IMG/VR virus record: IMGVR_UViG_2526164690_000052
Length of the DNA stretch: 37,501 nucleotides
Reading direction: 5' to 3' (one strand)
From: a virus
Taxonomy: Duplodnaviria > Heunggongvirae > Uroviricota > Caudoviricetes
The notes beneath the pieces were generated by a model. That model had not been told where the DNA came from, did no database searches, and saw only the letters and a list, made by a program, of their open reading frames with translations. Positions 1-37,501 of this stretch are shown one piece after another (position 1 is the first letter of the stretch; the number at the start of each line of letters is the position of its first letter). A program made the position numbers and the translations under genes.

Positions 1-1002
1 TTACCCTCTATTGTCAAAAGGGTTCAATTCAACAGCAGCCTCTAAATGACCTGGAGCAAAATGCGCATAACGCATAGTCATTTTTATATCGCTATGCCCC
101 AGTATTTTTTGCAACACAAGAATATTTCCGCCCCGCATCATAAAATGACTGGCAAACGTGTGACGTAGCACATGAGTTAATTGCCCATCAGGAAGCTCGA
201 TCTTCGCTCTCTTAATTGCAGCGTCAAAAGCCTCATAACATGGTGAAAATAGCGCTCCTCGTTTTTGAGGAAGCATAGCCTGCAATTGAGGTGAAATCGG
301 TACAGTGCGGTTCTTCTTTCCTTTAGTTTTAACAAATGTGATTCGACCGGGCAGTACTTGAGATTGCTTTAATCCTTCAGCTTCACTCCACCGAGCACCA
401 GTCGCAAGCCCAATACGGACAACACCCCCCAAATCTTTATTCCGTGACTCATCACACGCAATCAGAAGGCGTTCAATCTCATCTACATACAGAAACGCCA
501 GTTCCTTTTCTTCCTCACGAAACTTGCGAATACCAGTCAGGGGGTTTTCACCAGACCACTCCCCAAGGCGCTTCAGTTCGGCAAAAACAGCATGTAGATA
601 TGACTGCTCGCGATTAACGGTTGCTTCACTAAGTTTTTTCTTCCCCTTGGGATTCCATTCTCCTGATAGCCTTCTTTCCCGATAAGTAGCAAACATATTT
701 TTGTCAAACTGAGAAGCAAATGGATCCCCCAGCCTGGAACAAATCGCCTCAAGTTTGACTTTGCGCTCTGCACCAGAGGACAAGGTTTTACCGTACATCT
801 CAAACCAACGAGCAATCAACTCAGAAAGACGAGGACCAGAACCATCTTGAAACTCGTCTCCAACTCTACTATTCATTAAACGGCGCTCATAAGAGAGCGC
901 CTCACTTTTTGTCGCAAACTGTTTACGAATGCGTTTTCCCGATGCCCCGTAGGGATAACATTCGCAAAGCCATTTACCTGATGGAATCTTACGAACCGAC
1001 AT
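1..1002 (-). CDS. int: Tyrosine site-specific integrase (P2/186-type prophage integrase)
   Basis: 333-aa ORF; C-terminal tyrosine-recombinase signature HVLRHTFASHF...GHSDIKMTMRYAHF; sits at prophage edge, co-oriented with repressor; its stop codon is window bases 1-3. Confidence 0.9.
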   Translation of the reverse strand: MSVRKIPSGKWLCECYPYGASGKRIRKQFATKSEALSYERRLMNSRVGDEFQDGSGPRLSELIARWFEMYGKTLSSGAERKVKLEAICSRLGDPFASQFDKNMFATYRERRLSGEWNPKGKKKLSEATVNREQSYLHAVFAELKRLGEWSGENPLTGIRKFREEEKELAFLYVDEIERLLIACDESRNKDLGGVVRIGLATGARWSEAEGLKQSQVLPGRITFVKTKGKKNRTVPISPQLQAMLPQKRGALFSPCYEAFDAAIKRAKIELPDGQLTHVLRHTFASHFMMRGGNILVLQKILGHSDIKMTMRYAHFAPGHLEAAVELNPFDNRG

Positions 1003-1007
1003 TTTAG

Positions 1008-1355
1008 TTACTTATCACATAAATCAAATGCAGCCTTAGTGACATCCCCCAGACTCTTTTTTAACCCTGGGGCGGCATCATTATCTAGCCAAAATGGATT
1101 ATTGTTATCTAACGGTAACGCACCAAATGTTTTACCTTTTATTCGAGCTAAACCTGTAAGCGCATATAACTTATTATCGTCAAAATTCATCACATAAGGA
1201 TTACCATCAAGACACTGTAATTGAACCTCATCAGTATTAAATGGCCATACCCCATTGAAACTCTCACGTTCAATAGTTTTAAAAGGCATTGCGACGGCGG
1301 AAAAAGAAAACATAGATAAAAAAGTAACTAATAGTTGAACCTTTTTTACTTTCAT
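1008..1355 (-). CDS. Secreted/periplasmic protein of unknown function (cargo in lysogenic operon)
   Basis: 115-aa ORF; N-terminal signal peptide MKVKK + hydrophobic core + AVA cleavage motif; two Cys; GAGGT Shine-Dalgarno 5 nt upstream of ATG; AT-rich; 5 nt from int start. Confidence 0.6.
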   Translation of the reverse strand: MKVKKVQLLVTFLSMFSFSAVAMPFKTIERESFNGVWPFNTDEVQLQCLDGNPYVMNFDDNKLYALTGLARIKGKTFGALPLDNNNPFWLDNDAAPGLKKSLGDVTKAAFDLCDK

Positions 1356-1384
1356 ATCATTACCTCAATTTAGCTCAAGTAAGA

Positions 1385-2035
1385 TTACAAATTAAAAAAC
1401 ACCCTAGAAATGGCACCGCCTACCAAAACCCCTACGCAGATAAAGAATATTATTTCTTTTGGATAAAGTCGGATTAATTCTGAAGCACGAAGTCGAACTT
1501 CTGGTAAGGCCGAACTCTCTGTGTGACTTGATGCCGATTGTTGCTCTAACCACGACAATGCAGACTGTAACTGAGAACGAGTAAGATCGTTTAAACGTCC
1601 TGTACCGAAATTGATATGGCAATACCGCAGAAGTTTTTGTCGAAGTCCACAGTCTTCACTGTTACGTAGTAATAAACTTACAAGAGTCTTACAGGCATCA
1701 TGATCTTTACATCGCTCAAGCATTGCATGCAGAAAACTCTCCGCTGTTTTATATTGATTTACTGTCATATCATCAATACCAGCTACACCAATCTCCGCAT
1801 GTACTTTTTGCCAAATAATAAACGCTTCAGTATTGCTAGCTTCTGCAATAGCAGCAACCAAGCTATTTAGCTCCTTACGCTGAGCCTTAAGCAAAGGGCG
1901 ATCGTCATCATCATTATTCGAAGGGATTGCGATATTGACGGTATGAGAACCATCATATCGCTCTATCTGAATATTCTTTTCGTGAAAATCACGCCCAGCA
2001 ACGCGATTGTTTGAACCGTTTGAGTTGACGGCCAT
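1385..2035 (-). CDS. Membrane-anchored protein of unknown function (C-terminal hydrophobic segment)
   Basis: 216-aa ORF; GGAGGT RBS upstream of ATG; C-terminal hydrophobic stretch IIFFICVGVLVGGAI; N-terminal motif SNNRVAGRDFHE matches the C-terminus of the upstream repressor. Confidence 0.6.
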   Translation of the reverse strand: MAVNSNGSNNRVAGRDFHEKNIQIERYDGSHTVNIAIPSNNDDDDRPLLKAQRKELNSLVAAIAEASNTEAFIIWQKVHAEIGVAGIDDMTVNQYKTAESFLHAMLERCKDHDACKTLVSLLLRNSEDCGLRQKLLRYCHINFGTGRLNDLTRSQLQSALSWLEQQSASSHTESSALPEVRLRASELIRLYPKEIIFFICVGVLVGGAISRVFFNL

Positions 2036-2050
2036 GTCACCTCCCTACTA

Positions 2051-2455
2051 TCACCTACCCTTAGTTTCGTTATAGTCACGACCAGCGATACGGTTATTAC
2101 CACCAGAAATATTTAACTCACGTCCTGATGGCTGAGTTTCCTTTTCACTGATCGCACCTTTTAAAGCCCCGATCACCGCGTTTTTCACATCTAACGAAGC
2201 TGCTCGAAAGCGAGTAATCAACTCCTGCTCATCATCGTTATAAGTTTCAGGTGAGTGAATTCCCAACACAACATACTGAACATCAAGGCCAAAACGAGAC
2301 AGCGCTGCCAAATACGCAGCATCAGGAAAGCTATCTCCTTTCTCATATCTAAGCTGAGTTAGCTTTTTGACTCCACCAATGTCGCTCATGGCAACTTGAC
2401 TAAGTCCCAATCTTTCCCTTTCCTCACGCAACCGCTGACCAATATCATTTTTCAT
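2051..2455 (-). CDS. XRE-family helix-turn-helix transcriptional repressor (immunity repressor, functional analogue of P2 C / 186 CI)
   Basis: 134-aa ORF; N-terminal Cro/CI-type HTH (LREERERLGLSQVAMSDIGGVKKLTQLRYEKG); first leftward gene at the divergent switch region, upstream of int. Confidence 0.75.
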   Translation of the reverse strand: MKNDIGQRLREERERLGLSQVAMSDIGGVKKLTQLRYEKGDSFPDAAYLAALSRFGLDVQYVVLGIHSPETYNDDEQELITRFRAASLDVKNAVIGALKGAISEKETQPSGRELNISGGNNRIAGRDYNETKGR

Positions 2456-2530
2456 ACAAAAACCTTGACAGATATCTTTTTTGATACCAAAATGATTTCA
2501 CGAGCTATTAGATGATCACAATATACCACT
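2456..2530. promoter_or_regulatory. Divergent early/lysogenic switch region (promoter-operator)
   Basis: 75-bp AT-rich gap between divergent repressor and early genes; TTGACA at 2465-2470 with 17-bp spacer to CAAAAT on + strand; palindromes AGATATCT (2470-2477) and TGATCA (2513-2518). Confidence 0.5.
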
Positions 2531-2737
2531 ATGAAACAAGTTCTTCACGATACCAGATCACGCATTCCGCGTAACACCGCCACAGGTCCAAGACTGGCAC
2601 TTCGGCTGTCCCTCGAGGAGCGAGCCGTCATTGATGAAATGGCAGCTAAAGAACAACGCTCATCCTCTAACATGGCGCGCATGATCTTCCTTCGCGGCCT
2701 AGAGCTAACCCAGAAAGAACAAAACAAATCTTCCTGA
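2531..2737 (+). CDS. Small ribbon-helix-helix-like DNA-binding protein (Cox/Apl-position early regulator)
   Basis: 68-aa ORF, first rightward gene of early operon; beta-strand/helix pattern RLALRLSLEERAVIDEMAAKE typical of RHH proteins; function inferred from position. Confidence 0.5.
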   Translation: MKQVLHDTRSRIPRNTATGPRLALRLSLEERAVIDEMAAKEQRSSSNMARMIFLRGLELTQKEQNKSS

Positions 2738-2753
2738 TCAGGAGGCTAGTGGG

Positions 2754-2957
2754 ATGTCAGGTATAACCATCAATATCAATGTGAATGCCCCCTATGTATC
2801 CCTGCAGAAATATGCAGAGATAACAGGTATCCCTCTTAATACATGCAAAAAGATGTTGGCTGACGGTCGAATTATTATCCGCCCCAAACGCGCCAAAATG
2901 GAAAAGCCTGAAGTAAACCTTGTGGCGATGTTAAAAGACGCTTTGGCTAACAGCTAA
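2754..2957 (+). CDS. Small HTH DNA-binding protein (excisionase/regulator-like)
   Basis: 67-aa ORF with AGGAGG RBS; YVSLQKYAEITGIPLNTCKKMLADGRI resembles excisionase/AlpA-type HTH. Confidence 0.5.
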   Translation: MSGITININVNAPYVSLQKYAEITGIPLNTCKKMLADGRIIIRPKRAKMEKPEVNLVAMLKDALANS

Positions 2958-2978
2958 AACAATGAACAGAGCATCATC

Positions 2979-3329
2979 ATGAAAAAAAACACTAATAATC
3001 CATACTCCAAATTTCGTAATGGCGTAGAACGCCATGTACACCACGTCGCTACCAGTGCATCACGTAGTAACAGCCGCTATAACCTGAACGAGACGCACGC
3101 AACACCAGATGGGCACGCTGTAAAACAAATCGGCGAACACACCTGGCTGATTGAGAAAGCTGGAATCGTGGTTCACAGATGCCCACACAATCCGTTTACC
3201 GGAAACCGCATTTTTGCATTAAGCAGCGGCGATAATCAGTTCGGGCAGGATTTCACATTGTACGAAGCACTACGCACAGTCGATCGTCTGCTTCGCGGGC
3301 AAAGTTTTATTAAACAGGCTGCTTTATAA
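2979..3329 (+). CDS. Hypothetical early protein
   Basis: 116-aa ORF in early operon, co-oriented and tightly spaced. Confidence 0.45.
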   Translation: MKKNTNNPYSKFRNGVERHVHHVATSASRSNSRYNLNETHATPDGHAVKQIGEHTWLIEKAGIVVHRCPHNPFTGNRIFALSSGDNQFGQDFTLYEALRTVDRLLRGQSFIKQAAL

Positions 3330-3982: not shown

Positions 3983-4068
3983 CCGCATAAATAAAACCCC
4001 AGCTTAAATAAAAAAATGTGAACACAATCTGCATTCGCAGAGGTATTCACACACACCAAGGAGGCGTA

Positions 4069-4272
4069 ATGGCAATTAAGCATTTTCCTGTCGTTCGTTT
4101 CACCTCCAGAGGACGTGAATACGAAGTCGACGAACGTCTGATTACCACAATCGACAAACACCGCTCAGAAAAGGATGCACACCACATCTATCTCACTGAC
4201 GGCACTTACTTTTGCGCCACTAATGTGGCGCGGGTGAATCTTATCCGACAGGTACAGGATCCACGCAAATGA
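4069..4272 (+). CDS. Hypothetical early protein
   Basis: ORF-track frame 4018..4272; start placed at ATG 4069 which follows AAGGAGG (4058-4064). Confidence 0.4.
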   Translation: MAIKHFPVVRFTSRGREYEVDERLITTIDKHRSEKDAHHIYLTDGTYFCATNVARVNLIRQVQDPRK

Positions 4273-4487
4273 GTAGGAGAAGAATCACTCGCAGACATCA
4301 CCGAACACACCTGAGTTCCTCAGCAACGCTAAAGGCACTTATTCAAAGCGAGATCGGTGATTTCTTCGCGGGAGTTGGCTCACCAGGCGAACCAGAAACA
4401 CCAGAAGCGATGCAGCGTGAGCTCATGATACGCATAGATAACACTTTTGATTTCTTCTACAGCATGCACGGAATTAAACAGAAATGA
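4269..4487 (+). CDS. Hypothetical early protein
   Basis: 72-aa ORF, start overlaps previous stop. Confidence 0.4.
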   Translation: MSRRRITRRHHRTHLSSSATLKALIQSEIGDFFAGVGSPGEPETPEAMQRELMIRIDNTFDFFYSMHGIKQK

Positions 4488-7898: not shown

Positions 7899-8858
7899 AT
7901 GAAAATTTGTATCGACGACGGCTCCACCAACATCAAGCTGGCATGGACTGAGAACGGCGAACGCCGCAACGCCATCAGCCCGAACAGCTTCAAGTCGGAA
8001 TGGTCTGCGCCGTTCGGTGGCACGCAGCCCGCGAACTACATGCTTGATGGCGTGCGCTATGGTTTTGATCCGGTCAGCGATCGCTTTGTCCAGACGACCG
8101 ACACGCAATACCAGTACAGCGATGTGAATATAATTGCCATTCATCACGCGCTGGTCAAATCAGGCATCACACCACAGGAAGTGGATGTGGTTGTCACCCT
8201 GCCACTGAGCGAGTATTTCGATACAAACGCACAGCCGGACATGGCCAACATCAACCGCAAAAAAGCGAACGTCATGCGCCCGGTGGAGTACCAGAACGGC
8301 GAAGCATTCACTATCCGTAACGTACGGGTTATGCCTGAATCCATTCCGGCTGGCTTTAAGGCACTGGCTGACATGAGTCCGTTTGAATCCCTGCTGATTG
8401 TGGATTTGGGCGGAACCACTCTGGATGTGGCAAAGGTTCAGGGGCAACTGGCAGGTATCAGCCAGGTGTTTTGCGATCCACACGTGGGCGTTTCTCTGAT
8501 GGCCGATGCCGTACTGTCGGTGATGGCCACTAACGGTATGCGCACCAGTCACCACATCGCCAATACCATTATCGAACATCGCCATGATGAAGCCTGGCTG
8601 CGCCAGCACATCCACAATGACGCGCATTACGCCAGCCTGATGGCGGTTATTCGTGAAAAGGAAGAAACACTGAAACAACGCGTGATCCGCGCGCTGGCGG
8701 GTTTTTCGGGTTACGGGCGGGTGATGGTTGTCGGTGGAGGGGCGGAGATTGTGGCACCCGCTATCCGCGAAGCCTGCGGAGTTAATGCGACTTTCATCGC
8801 GGACGGGGTGCCACAGTTTGCTCTGGTTAATGGGCTGTACGCAATGGACAAGGAGTAA
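7899..8858 (+). CDS. parM: ParM/StbA-like actin-family segregation ATPase
   Basis: 319 aa; N-terminus MKICIDDGSTNIKLAW...ISPNSFKSEW and internal blocks (YSDVNIIAIHHAL, VMPESIPAG, DLGGTTLD, VGGGAE) match plasmid R1 ParM as recalled. Confidence 0.8.
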   Translation: MKICIDDGSTNIKLAWTENGERRNAISPNSFKSEWSAPFGGTQPANYMLDGVRYGFDPVSDRFVQTTDTQYQYSDVNIIAIHHALVKSGITPQEVDVVVTLPLSEYFDTNAQPDMANINRKKANVMRPVEYQNGEAFTIRNVRVMPESIPAGFKALADMSPFESLLIVDLGGTTLDVAKVQGQLAGISQVFCDPHVGVSLMADAVLSVMATNGMRTSHHIANTIIEHRHDEAWLRQHIHNDAHYASLMAVIREKEETLKQRVIRALAGFSGYGRVMVVGGGAEIVAPAIREACGVNATFIADGVPQFALVNGLYAMDKE

Positions 8859-8862
8859 ACCA

Positions 8863-9174
8863 ATGACGACTCCAACCAGACGGATAAGTTTCTATCTGAA
8901 GCCCACCGCCGTCAAGAACGAAGGAGAAGCATGCGCCTGGCTGGACAGCCTTACACCAGAAGCCCGCAAAAGCGGCCAACGCGTGGCTTTTCTGGCCGGG
9001 CTGGCACTTCTGAAAATGAATCCGGCAGAGGCTTATCGACTGGCTGCATGGGCTGGTGATGAAGCGTTATCAGTGACACAAACCAGGACAGAACGCCCCG
9101 CATCACAGCCAGTATCAACCGCACAGATAACCAGTCAGATGGCCGGAAATATCCGGGCGTTATTTCCTGAATAA
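8863..9174 (+). CDS. parR: ParR/StbB-like partition adaptor
   Basis: 103 aa from ATG 8863 (AGGAG 7 nt upstream); RRISFYLKP...AWLDSLTP...RVAFLAGLALL pattern resembles R1 ParR N-terminal RHH region; directly downstream of parM. Confidence 0.6.
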   Translation: MTTPTRRISFYLKPTAVKNEGEACAWLDSLTPEARKSGQRVAFLAGLALLKMNPAEAYRLAAWAGDEALSVTQTRTERPASQPVSTAQITSQMAGNIRALFPE

Positions 9175-34143: not shown

Positions 34144-34795
34144 GTGGGAAACAATAAAGTGAAATTAGGAAGAAATGATAAGTGCTGGTGTAATTCAGGA
34201 CTTAAGTATAAAAAGTGCCATCTTGGTCGAGATCGTGAAACTCCGGTATCCAAAGCCGAGGCACTGAAATTTTCAAAGTCTCTCTCGCAGAGAAAGGCAT
34301 GTTATGCGCCAGCATCCATGCACGAAGATTGTGATAAACGCATCGTTCAGGCGCATACGATATCTAAGAGCAGTAGCCTTAAGGCGATCGCCGACTCCAG
34401 CAATCACGTCATGGGGGTGATAATGAACTTAGCAAGCCTGATGAGAAACAACGGAAAATGGCTTCCCGAGAAGATCGGTATCAATCAGGCATCCACTTTT
34501 ACAGGATTTTGTGCAGTTCATGACAGAATCTTATTTTCATGCCTAGAGAACGAAAAATTTACAGGCACGGACGAGCAGTGCTTTGCCTTAATGTTTCGTT
34601 CATTGTCTAAAGAAATTTATGCCAAAGAAGGGGGAGTGCTATCTTCTGATTTTGCTAAAAATGCCGATAAAGGAAAGCTACAAGTTGAACAGTATTATAT
34701 TCAGAAATTAATCGACCAGCACCAAAGTGGCTTAAATGCAGCAATAATTGAATTAAATAATCTTAAAACTAGCCTCGACCGCATCCTACTTAGCA
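34144..34795 (+). pseudogene. N-terminal part of an IS10-disrupted cargo gene (SEC-C zinc-motif protein)
   Basis: ORF with N-terminal CWCNSGLKYKKCH (SEC-C-type metal-binding motif); reading frame runs into IS10 end at 34796 and stops 11 codons inside the IS; AT-rich. Confidence 0.6.
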
Positions 34796-36124
34796 CTGAG
34801 AGATCCCCTCATAATTTCCCCAAAGCGTAACCATGTGTGAATAAATTTTGAGCTAGTAGGGTTGCAGCCACGAGTAAGTCTTCCCTTGTTATTGTGTAGC
34901 CAGAATGCCGCAAAACTTCCATGCCTAAGCGAACTGTTGAGAGTACGTTTCGATTTCTGACTGTGTTAGCCTGGAAGTGCTTGTCCCAACCTTGTTTCTG
35001 AGCATGAACGCCCGCAAGCCAACATGTTAGTTGAAGCATCAGGGCGATTAGCAGCATGATATCAAAACGCTCTGAGCTGCTCGTTCGGCTATGGCGTAGG
35101 CCTAGTCCGTAGGCAGGACTTTTCAAGTCTCGGAAGGTTTCTTCAATCTGCATTCGCTTCGAATAGATATTAACAAGTTGTTTGGGTGTTCGAATTTCAA
35201 CAGGTAAGTTAGTTGCTAGAACCCATGGCTCCTTTGCCGACGCTGAGTAGATTTTAGGTGACGGGTGGTGACAATGAGTCCGTGTCGAGCGCTGATTTTT
35301 TCGGCCTTTAGAGCGAGATTTATACAATAGAATTTGGCATGAGATTGGATTGCTTTTAGTCAGCCTCTTATAGCCTAAAGTCTTTGAGTGACTAGATGAC
35401 ATATCATGTAAGTTGCTGATAGGTTTCCAGTTTTCCGCTCCTAGGTCTGCATATTGTACTTTTCCTCTTACTCGACTTAACCAGTACCAACCCAGCTTCT
35501 CAACGGATTTATACCATGGCACTTTAAAGCCAGCATCACTGACAATGAGCGGTGTGGTGTTACTCGGTAGAATGCTCGCAAGGTCGGCTAGAAATTGGTC
35601 ATGAGCTTTCTTTGAACATTGCTCTGAAAGCGGGAACGCTTTCTCATAAAGAGTAACAGAACGACCGTGTAGTGCGACTGAAGCTCGCAATACCATAAGT
35701 CGTTTTTGCTCACGAATATCAGACCAGTCAACAAGTACAATGGGCATCGTATTGCCCGAACAGATAAAGCTAGCATGCCAACGGTATACAGCGAGTCGCT
35801 CTTTGTGGAGGTGACGATTACCTAACAATCGGTCGATTCGTTTGATGTTATGTTTTGTTCTCGCTTTGGTTGGCAGGTTACGGCCAAGTTCGGTAAGAGT
35901 GAGAGTTTTACAGTCAAGTAATGCGTGGCAAGCCAACGTTAAGCTGTTGAGTCGTTTTAAGTGTAATTCGGGGCAGAATTGGTAAAGAGAGTCGTGTAAA
36001 ATATCGAGTTCGCACATCTTGTTGTCTGATTATTGATTTTTCGCGAAACCATTTGATCATATGACAAGATGTGTATCCACCTTAACTTAATGATTTTTAC
36101 CAAAATCATTAGGGGATTCATCAG
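34796..36124 (-). mobile_element. IS10 insertion sequence (IS4 family), complete 1329 bp, flanked by 9-bp target duplication TACTTAGCA
   Basis: terminal sequences CTGAGAGATCCCCTCATAATTTCCCC (34796 onward) and ...AATCATTAGGGGATTCATCAG (ending 36124) match IS10 inside and outside ends as recalled; direct repeats at 34787-34795 and 36125-36133 fit the IS10 target consensus. Confidence 0.9.
34809..36017 (-). CDS. IS10 transposase
   Basis: 402 aa beginning MCELDILHDSLYQFCPELHLKRLNSLTLACHALLDCKTLTLTELGRNLPTKARTKHNIKRIDRLLGNRHLHKE, recognised as Tn10/IS10 transposase. Confidence 0.9.
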   Translation of the reverse strand: MCELDILHDSLYQFCPELHLKRLNSLTLACHALLDCKTLTLTELGRNLPTKARTKHNIKRIDRLLGNRHLHKERLAVYRWHASFICSGNTMPIVLVDWSDIREQKRLMVLRASVALHGRSVTLYEKAFPLSEQCSKKAHDQFLADLASILPSNTTPLIVSDAGFKVPWYKSVEKLGWYWLSRVRGKVQYADLGAENWKPISNLHDMSSSHSKTLGYKRLTKSNPISCQILLYKSRSKGRKNQRSTRTHCHHPSPKIYSASAKEPWVLATNLPVEIRTPKQLVNIYSKRMQIEETFRDLKSPAYGLGLRHSRTSSSERFDIMLLIALMLQLTCWLAGVHAQKQGWDKHFQANTVRNRNVLSTVRLGMEVLRHSGYTITREDLLVAATLLAQNLFTHGYALGKL

Positions 36125-36621
36125 TACTTAGCAGGCAATTTTCAGAAATTGAAAGTGTTATCTTCACTTTTGCAGAGCCTTTACCAATTGTAGTTTCGTC
36201 AATTCTTTCACCGGAGAGGGATTTCGATGGGACCAAAATTCAGGATTTGAGCGATCTTACAGTGTCGGCGGAACAAGTATGTTTCAATGCTTTTTCCTGC
36301 GGAGGTAAGGGATATGTAGTGTTCAGTTGGCTGAGAACTTCAACAATTATCAGACGTTTTATACGGACACTAATTAAGATCCCAGCTAACAGGATGTTCA
36401 ATACCCTTCTGTATTTTTTCTTCACAAAGGCCGAAAATACATATTCATCCCCTGAGTGGTGGGACAGGCTCAGTGATAAACAGCGAGAGAATATCGGCAA
36501 CATGATTATGTCAGGGGTTGAATTTTTTGGCAGACCTACATCACAGGTTGATCATTCCGTTGATTATAACGCCGCTGCACTTGAAGAGATAACATGCAGC
36601 AACAACGAAATTTGCAGCTGA
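36125..36621 (+). pseudogene. C-terminal part of the IS10-disrupted cargo gene
   Basis: after removing IS10 and one TSD copy the upstream frame continues without stops (..ILLS-RQFSEIESVIF..) to stop at 36619-36621, giving a 379-aa ORF. Confidence 0.55.
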
Positions 36622-37171: not shown

Positions 37172-37360
37172 CAGGCAGAATTGCCGGAGTAACAAAAAAC
37201 GATAGATTACCCGCGGGTGCCTTTCGGCTGATGGTCGGAGGAATACCCGAAGGCCGGATGTGGAAAGGCCCCGGAAAACATTTCTGTTTAACCGAGGCCC
37301 TAACATATCTACCTTAAGCAAGTGATAGGTTAGCGCCTCTCCAACAAAGGAGCAAGCGCT

Positions 37361-37501
37361 ATGTCGCAAAAATCGCTTACAGCCATCACGTTCTGCGTGA
37401 CGGTAATCCTCATCATCTGGATGCTACACGGTTCGCTGTGTGAAATACGGATGAGCTTCTGGGGAGCGGAGTTTGCGGCGTTCTTACAGTGTAAGCAGTA
37501 A
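37361..37501 (+). CDS. Hok/Gef-family type I toxin (small membrane peptide)
   Basis: 46-aa ORF MSQKSLTAITFCVTVILIIWMLHGSLCEIRMSFWGAEFAAFLQCKQ; TM helix followed by SLCE(I/L) and (E)xAAFL motifs shared with HokA/Hok as recalled; below ORF-track cutoff; stop codon is the last 3 bases of the window. Confidence 0.65.
   Translation: MSQKSLTAITFCVTVILIIWMLHGSLCEIRMSFWGAEFAAFLQCKQ

Follow-up and report, generated by a model that had tools for sequence, protein, structure and literature searches.

Lysogen-expressed exclusion genes beside a phage repressor are familiar from lambda, where rexAB accompany cI. In the record of the Vibrio phage K139, cI-orf2-glo-int is annotated as a lysogenic operon transcribed from PL, with Glo as a small periplasmic protein involved in exclusion, and the exclusion protein Ltp of TP-J34 is encoded in the lysogeny module. 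Based on K139 and TP-J34, cargo between the repressor gene and int is therefore a known arrangement. Here, we analyzed a locus with two genes in this position, found in virus record IMGVR_UViG_2526164690_000052 of IMG/VR, a stretch of 37,501 nucleotides (nt) that we refer to as the window. This virus is a P88-like prophage of the Peduoviridae (Xuanwuvirus) and shares, over positions 1-3298, 97% identity with Escherichia phage 520873.

A second kind of precedent comes from amyloid-signaling pairs, which are recognized as adjacent, collinear genes whose products have a motif of at least 15 residues in common, C-terminal in one and N-terminal in the other (10.1101/2020.01.06.895854). One such pair, Bab/Agp, works in an E. 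coli prophage. On balance, we favor a reading that draws on both precedents, in which the block at 1008-2455 is the lysogeny operon of the prophage and comprises two functionally separate layers, namely a membrane protein of 216 amino acids (aa) that is a partner of the repressor, and a 115-aa protein that is cargo. An initial annotation of the window had treated both genes as cargo, and its overall interpretation is partly supported.

The four genes of the locus are read leftward from the minus strand, as are all features described within them. First comes an XRE-type helix-turn-helix (HTH) repressor of 134 aa with a C-terminal tail (2051-2455), assigned through Pfam HTH_31/HTH_3 and PHROG transcriptional-repressor families. 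It is followed by the Flk_N-domain, tail-anchored inner-membrane protein of 216 aa (1385-2035; phrog_5825, PF27202, and NCBIfam Flk), by the secreted 115-aa protein of the DUF2511/YebY family, cargo in a variable slot (1008-1355; Pfam, PDB, Foldseek, and PHROG matches, and GC content), and by int, a tyrosine integrase of 333 aa that ends the block (1-1002; Pfam Int_N and Phage_integrase). The successive gaps measure 15, 29, and 5 nt, and ribosome-binding sites stand 5 nt upstream of the ATG of the 216-aa gene (GGAGGT) and 8 nt upstream of that of the 115-aa gene (GAGGT).

Much of what the initial annotation said of this layout stands. The open reading frames (ORFs), with their orientation and spacing, the two ribosome-binding sites, the C-terminal hydrophobic segment of the 216-aa protein, and the signal peptide and two cysteines of the 115-aa protein are as it described them; K139 and TP-J34 bear out its view that the position is typical of lysogen-expressed accessory genes; and its baseline of a repressor gene followed directly by int is found in P88 itself, whose 93-aa C gene immediately adjoins int. 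Its description of the two genes as AT-rich fits the 115-aa gene (GC content 0.353) and not the 216-aa gene (0.410), which is near the repressor gene (0.442) and int (0.452).

The locus is common. The window is ~99.9% identical to the prophage beside yecA in E. coli O26:H11 11368, where the block at 1008-2455 is 100% identical, and the block is matched in 521 of 5426 complete E. coli genomes, or about one in ten, including O26 and O103 Shiga toxin-producing strains.

The motif shared by the repressor tail and the membrane protein

The C-terminal tail of the repressor and the N-terminus of the 216-aa protein carry one common motif of 17-29 residues. In the window, the tail motif LNISGGNNRIAGRDYNE occupies aa 114-130 of the repressor (2066-2116) and is mirrored by VNSNGSNNRVAGRDFHE at aa 3-19 of the membrane protein (1979-2029), such that the repressor ends in LNISGGNNRIAGRDYNETKGR and its neighbor begins with MAVNSNGSNNRVAGRDFHE. 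The two align over 17 columns with a score of 62 (z = 10, 2000 shuffles), and a six-frame translation of the entire window contains the core motif pattern at no third place. The repressor and the 216-aa protein thus have the motif arrangement by which amyloid-signaling pairs are recognized.

The likeness recurs across phage lineages, each with a motif of its own. All 79 distinct pairs, from 147 loci, score at least 33, with the 99th percentile of the shuffled null at 31. The motifs fall into classes that differ by lineage and match within each pair (NRxAGRD, FHGxVGQ, QQFNG, GQFAG, and GQIAGG); cognate alignments of tail and N-terminus score 37-67 (z 5-12, 10-34 columns), and between-class pairs score 13-32. 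Examples of tail and partner N-terminus are TFHGSVGQSVAGNVTNKSGVTFNVG and DFHGDVGQAAAGDINNYGVSISL in loci of the L112 type, QQFNGPVGGVTSGDVVN and QQFNGAVKQVAAGDIKN in L107, FNGDISGQFAGNQIINN and FNGTAQGQFSSRDIINI in Pectobacterium, and NTIRGEGQIAGGNIY and NTAEQIAGRDIY in Gilliamella. The tail is kept in repressor homologues with differing HTH domains, and the repressor stop and partner start overlap by 4 nt at the closest and lie 32 nt apart at the widest. One Gilliamella phage has, as the partner downstream of the repressor, a protein with two transmembrane segments and no Flk_N domain that still bears the matching motif. Two types of repressor without the tail, from P2-like prophages that are similar in other respects, are not followed by an Flk_N gene, and in the L135/L136 lineage the motif is missing from both genes.

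Where motif residues are identical, their codons are the same in just ~20-50% of cases. The likeness is therefore maintained by selection on the peptides and not by DNA duplication, and the codon identities rule out recent duplication or gene conversion as the source of the motif likeness. Two further candidate explanations were rejected. The repressor and 216-aa ORFs share a frame, separated by TGA TAG TAG GGA GGT GAC, and the 15-nt spacer (2036-2050) holds the in-frame TAG TAG beyond the repressor stop and then the GGAGGT site, such that a readthrough fusion is ruled out by three consecutive stops. A LexA-type Ala-Gly cleavage site, suggested by a resemblance to VAAG/E, is dismissed by the lack of an S24 peptidase domain and by the A-G pair not being kept across classes (GQVSAEN, VGQYIHGS).

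Two loci carry additional copies. In L109, a second, unrelated membrane protein of 130 aa (4004-4396) begins with the lineage motif MEFNGNVGQVAGGDIHNY, and the motif may thus tie more than one membrane protein to the repressor. In L162 (Salmonella contig ABCTBU010000011.1, 767-2801), the Flk_N gene comes after three HTH repressor genes in tandem; two of their tails are intact (NRVAGRDYNEKK), the third is degenerate, and a decayed motif remnant lies in the spacer.

From the matching motifs, we infer that the repressor tail and the membrane-protein N-terminus contact each other. The two copies would pair by strand-to-strand or cross-beta stacking, with the 216-aa protein probably oriented toward the cytoplasm, as Flk is. 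In the AlphaFold monomer, its N-terminal 40 residues have a predicted local distance difference test (pLDDT) score of ~55, so the motif is not folded on its own. Pairing would link part of the repressor pool to a membrane protein and could thereby couple repressor availability, and hence the maintenance or induction of lysogeny, to a membrane-located signal. Control may run in either direction, with the membrane protein capturing the repressor or the repressor triggering a membrane effector, or the tails may compete for a third site. A limited literature search returned no relevant description of a repressor paired with an Flk-like membrane partner.

A bolder version of this mechanism extends to a broadly distributed class of temperate-phage repressors, those of P2-like and transposase-carrying phages in Enterobacterales, Gilliamella, and Pseudomonas-type hosts. 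These would be under prion-like or cross-beta templating, in which the membrane protein nucleates by way of its N-terminal motif and captures or inactivates the repressor by way of the identical motif in the repressor tail, or the repressor triggers the membrane protein. Such templating is speculative, and we would bet against it. If true, it would be a membrane-to-genome lysogeny switch that needs neither LexA-type cleavage nor a soluble antirepressor, and the first amyloid-signaling pair with a transcription factor.

The same layout, with C-terminal and N-terminal motifs in collinear adjacent genes and at least 15 aligned residues, could instead belong to a toxin-antitoxin-like or amyloid-signaling pair whose membrane protein is a latent effector of membrane damage or growth arrest. 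Bab/Agp operates likewise, and a gene order in which an HTH protein precedes its translationally coupled partner recalls type II toxin-antitoxin operons. Against this, the Flk_N domain shows no resemblance to known toxin or pore-forming domains, and Flk, its relative in the host, is a regulator without toxicity. The pair occupies the site of core immunity in P2-like and transposase-carrying phages and not defense islands, and amyloid formation, suggested here by analogy, is hypothetical. We consider a lethal effector unlikely, and we are just as skeptical of the trigger that it would entail, which is motif templating upon a change in repressor state (an incoming antirepressor or loss of the repressor), leading to abortive infection or prophage addiction.

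Several points weigh against our preferred reading of a repressor partner. Within the NRxAGRD class, cognate pairs score no better than non-cognate pairs, and fine-scale cognate specificity is absent save at the position after RD. Residue covariation is confined to RD[F/Y/L], where 19 of 30 pairs are identical against 12.1 expected, a comparison uncorrected for relatedness. For an amyloid core the motif is short, and it includes charged residues; a common third site bound by both tails would yield the same pattern. Searches of PADLOC-DB 2.0 with both proteins matched 0 families at E up to 1. Finally, we infer the co-transcription of the repressor, 216-aa, 115-aa, and int genes from their sequence; the minus strand has no terminator-like sites from 2455 to 1008, which is compatible with a single transcript and not proof of one.

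The Flk_N protein and the variable slot beside it

The 216-aa protein belongs to phrog_5825 (E 4e-102), and its residues 37-166 align with positions 20-149 of the NCBIfam Flk model PRK10715 (E 9e-16). PF27202 (Flk_N) is on record for its 99% identical homologue P0001 and for 118 of the 119 other listed homologues. The AlphaFold model places a helical Flk_N domain at aa 45-175 (1511-1903) with pLDDT above 95, and a predicted helix at aa 192-215 (1391-1462) corresponds to a C-terminal transmembrane anchor, with a Kyte-Doolittle maximum of 2.36 at aa 195-213. This hydrophobic segment is common to family members and constitutes a single anchor, as in Flk.

Flk has a C-terminal membrane anchor with its bulk in the cytoplasm, and it keeps the flagellar export gate in its early mode (PMC13344023). 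Being homologous to residues 20-149 of Flk and tail-anchored in the same way, the 216-aa protein could target the flagellar export apparatus in a lysogen and so alter flagellation, as a form of lysogenic conversion. Such mimicry has very little to recommend it in our judgment. Against the full-length Flk equivalog (~333 aa), the protein scores 58 bits, far below the cut-off of 353, and its 216 aa cover only Flk 20-149. Flk proteins are without the N-terminal motif, and mimicry leaves the link to the repressor unexplained. The family is also abundant in prophages of Klebsiella, which is normally non-flagellate.

Comparisons beyond the Flk family gave weaker signals. A search of the PDB with the 216-aa sequence returned just chance matches to the transmembrane segment, a fold search of BFVD gave weak matches only (E at least 0.017), and scans of viral contigs with the distant members P0157, P0168, and P0162 gave no matches. 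Among the structures most similar to the Flk_N subdomain is the Red-beta C-terminal domain, which was solved with the SSB C-terminal peptide; lambda Orf (NinB) and ORF6C-type small helical domains are similar too, all with modest scores and identities of 10-19%. The Red-beta-type likeness of the model may be a lead toward a peptide- or protein-binding fold, and is not family membership.

A binding fold of this kind bears on the possibility that the motif copies do not bind each other and that a third factor recognizes both; this factor might be an antirepressor, a protease or adaptor, or the helical domain of Flk_N itself. The matching motifs of the two proteins are in line with such a factor, the SSB peptide complex of the Red-beta domain offers a parallel, and related prophages contain a gene of a 'Derepression' family. 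Lambda CIII, which protects CII from FtsH, is the model for this explanation. We find a common receptor doubtful, and we are similarly doubtful of the consequence that the membrane protein competes with the repressor tail as a decoy and sets repressor stability or the induction threshold.

Across P2-like prophages from many enterobacterial genera, the order of the genes is always repressor, Flk_N, a variable slot, and int; the comparison covered Klebsiella, other lineages of E. coli, representatives of 11 further species, and 80 viral contigs. The occupants of the slot cluster into at least nine unrelated families, DUF2511 being one. The others include BRCT-WYL proteins of 288-295 aa, TerB-like-BRCT proteins of 291-298 aa, DUF8087 acidic proteins, a 242-244-aa protein with an N-terminal transmembrane segment, a two-gene set (117-120 aa and 135-163 aa), a signal-peptide protein of 126-137 aa, a 113-aa protein, and a 440-459-aa protein, and the slot can also be empty. 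At the pgsA-uvrC attachment site of Klebsiella, the cargo is either BRCT-WYL or YebY, and at the yecA site of E. coli it is either DUF2511 or DUF8087. The TerB-like/BRCT cargo is found in Kosakonia and Enterobacter prophages and also matches the PADLOC candidate PDC-S48; one example (L101, 4551-5447) shares 32% identity (E 3e-47) with K139 orf2, which likewise has a BRCT domain (L160, 2194-3099).

Since the cargo differs at one and the same site and slot, the 115-aa gene is hotspot cargo and the 216-aa gene is not. We place the latter in the immunity module because it is fixed beside the repressor whatever the slot holds and because its motif co-varies with that of the repressor. The initial annotation is thus right about one of its two cargo genes, and it erred in treating them as a pair. 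It had proposed looking in other prophages for the pair traveling with P2-like repressors; the Flk_N gene does so, and the 115-aa gene is swapped. It had also stated that neither protein resembled a nameable family, which is incorrect (DUF2511/YebY for the 115-aa protein, Flk_N/phrog_5825 for the 216-aa protein). Profile searches, as it suggested, placed both in these families, and structure searches agreed for the 115-aa protein; the fold similarities of the 216-aa protein are weak.

These results also bear on the model from which that annotation started, in which both genes form one accessory system for exclusion, abortive infection, or conversion, comparable to lambda rexAB and inserted as cargo. 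Tight spacing within the lysogeny block, a phage-type DUF2511 gene that always comes after the Flk_N gene in the places examined, and the distribution of the two products between membrane and periplasm would all suit such a system. The dependence is one-way, however, as the Flk_N gene also comes after the repressor where the slot is empty or taken by other cargo, of at least nine families. The Flk_N motif is common to the repressor and not to the DUF2511 protein, GC content differs (0.41 and 0.35), and the two proteins share the lack of a PADLOC match. We regard a single two-gene system as very unlikely.

As a separate observation, loci L076, L078, and L079 (903-nt gap) and loci L081 and L082 (489-nt gap) have no plus-strand ORF of at least 60 aa between the Flk_N gene and int. 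These long gaps could hold a gene on the minus strand, the remains of a cargo gene, or an RNA.

The DUF2511 cargo protein and other features of the prophage

The 115-aa protein matches Pfam PF10709 (DUF2511) with 28.4 bits at a cut-off of 21, covering profile positions 2-87 of 87, and it matches phrog_2950 with an E value of 9e-40. A phmmer search of the PDB found YebY (7n0j; E 0.003) at ~30% identity with both cysteines aligned. The AlphaFold model, with a mean pLDDT of 75.8, has the YebY/MlbQ fold of a four-stranded sheet and helices; Foldseek matched it to 7n0j with a probability of 1.00 and a target-normalized template modeling score of 0.73-0.80, and also to MlbQ (2mvo/6qfp). As read by eye from the sequence, residues 1-22 (1290-1355) form a signal peptide, MKVKKVQLLVTFLSMFSFSAVA, that ends in AVA before M and consists of n, h, and c regions MKVKK, LLVTFLSMFSFS, and AVA. 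The protein has exactly two cysteines, Cys48 and Cys113, which are invariant among 13 phage homologues and predicted to form a disulfide by their likeness to YebY.

The YebY family is periplasmic, and YebY has a stabilizing disulfide, C48-C113 (PMC8689200). The same work had already noted that some Enterobacteriaceae homologues of YebY are encoded between an XerD-like recombinase and a phage CI-type HTH protein (PMC8689200). Neither yobA (CopC) nor yebZ (CopD) lies beside the 115-aa gene, whose neighbors are the Flk_N gene and int. The phage-type DUF2511 subfamily is narrow, comprising 18 clusters, and its gene lies between the Flk_N gene and int everywhere examined. In one E. coli strain (NZ_AP042519.1, 2612371-2614595), the block contains an IS1A element that, going by the features listed for the match, divides the DUF2511 gene in two.

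We propose that the 115-aa protein would guard the envelope of the lysogen as a periplasmic binding protein. Its likeliest action would be to block the entry of superinfecting phage DNA, by analogy with K139 Glo at the same genomic position, and alternatively it might neutralize an envelope-acting agent. Our confidence in an exclusion role is low because, of the characterized relatives, MlbQ binds a lantibiotic and YebY modulates copper import, and the DUF2511 family is not known for exclusion. The analogy with Glo, moreover, is one of position: Glo and the DUF2511 protein align with a BLASTP E value of 9.1, which rules out Glo as a DUF2511 homologue, and Glo belongs to no Pfam family.

Upstream of the repressor gene, positions 2456-2530 form a divergent control region between it and the early rightward genes. 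This region contains a promoter-like site on the plus strand (2465-2493, 10/12 matches) and an inverted repeat (2444-2462 and 2478-2496). Annotations of the adjacent sequence conflict, in that the phage 520873 record gives a 68-aa 'Arc-like repressor' on the plus strand (2531-2737) and RefSeq gives a 45-aa hypothetical protein on the minus strand in O26 (~2545-2682); Pfam support for a ribbon-helix-helix at 2531-2737 has an E value of 0.075.

At the other end of the prophage, a 1329-bp element at 34796-36124 encodes a 402-aa transposase (34809-36017, minus strand) and is flanked by a 9-bp duplication (34787-34795 and 36125-36133). We take it to be IS10-like, judging by the transposase and end sequences. 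It is missing from the otherwise ~99.9% identical prophage of O26:H11 11368, and it interrupts a gene between gpD and ogr for a 'YecA family protein' with an N-terminal SEC-C-type Cys motif. Other accessory genes were named by collinearity with the RefSeq annotation of NC_013361: ParM and a partition protein (7899-9174), a DUF6645 protein between the lysis and tail genes (18082-19959), a serine O-acetyltransferase downstream of the tail-fiber assembly gene (26183-26755, minus strand), and Hok/Gef at the end of the window (37359-37499).

Significance and comparison with known systems

If the motif pairing is true, it shows how a large group of phage repressors that are not cleaved in the SOS response is wired to the cell envelope, and it bears on what induces P2-type prophages. 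It would also extend paired-motif signaling of the amyloid type from immune receptors to gene regulation. Apart from the pairing, the locus defines a cargo hotspot, and its occupants (YebY-like, BRCT-WYL, TerB-BRCT, DUF8087, and others) are candidates to have new roles in exclusion or conversion. The lesson for annotation is that adjoining a repressor does not by itself make a gene cargo.

Each of the two proteins has described relatives in bacteria. With E. coli YebY and Microbispora MlbQ, the 115-aa protein shares the DUF2511 family, the fold, a signal peptide, and two equivalently placed cysteines. It differs in lying outside a yobA-yebZ-yebY operon and in belonging to a phage subfamily, and a copper or lantibiotic role is not implied. 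With Flk (Fluke, RflH) of Salmonella and E. coli, the 216-aa protein shares a homologous N-terminal helical domain and a C-terminal anchor. Flk, in contrast, is a protein of 330-416 aa with a long linker and without the motif at its N-terminus; its gene is chromosomal, and its action is on the flagellar export switch.

The repressor and its putative partner resemble amyloid-signaling pairs (fungal HET-S/NWD2, bacterial BASS, and Bab/Agp) in having a short motif, rich in G, N, and Q, that varies by lineage and is matched within pairs, and in that one partner is directed to the membrane. The partners here are an XRE repressor and an Flk_N protein, unlike the Bell/HeLo effector and NLR/TPR sensor of described pairs; the NRxAGRD version of the motif is charged, and amyloid formation by it would be conjecture.

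A close parallel for the locus as a whole is K139, another member of the Peduoviridae and the P2 family, in which accessory genes lie between the repressor gene and int and all are read leftward. As with Glo, the 115-aa gene encodes a small signal-peptide protein between the repressor and int and is co-oriented with them. K139 differs in that its CI, of the 186 type (Phage_CI_repr and CI_C), lacks the tail motif and is not accompanied by an Flk_N protein. Lambda rexAB and TP-J34 ltp share with this locus the encoding of accessory envelope proteins in the lysogeny module. They have no sequence kinship with the genes studied here, one of which, under the pairing that we propose, would be coupled to the repressor and would not serve as an independent exclusion factor.

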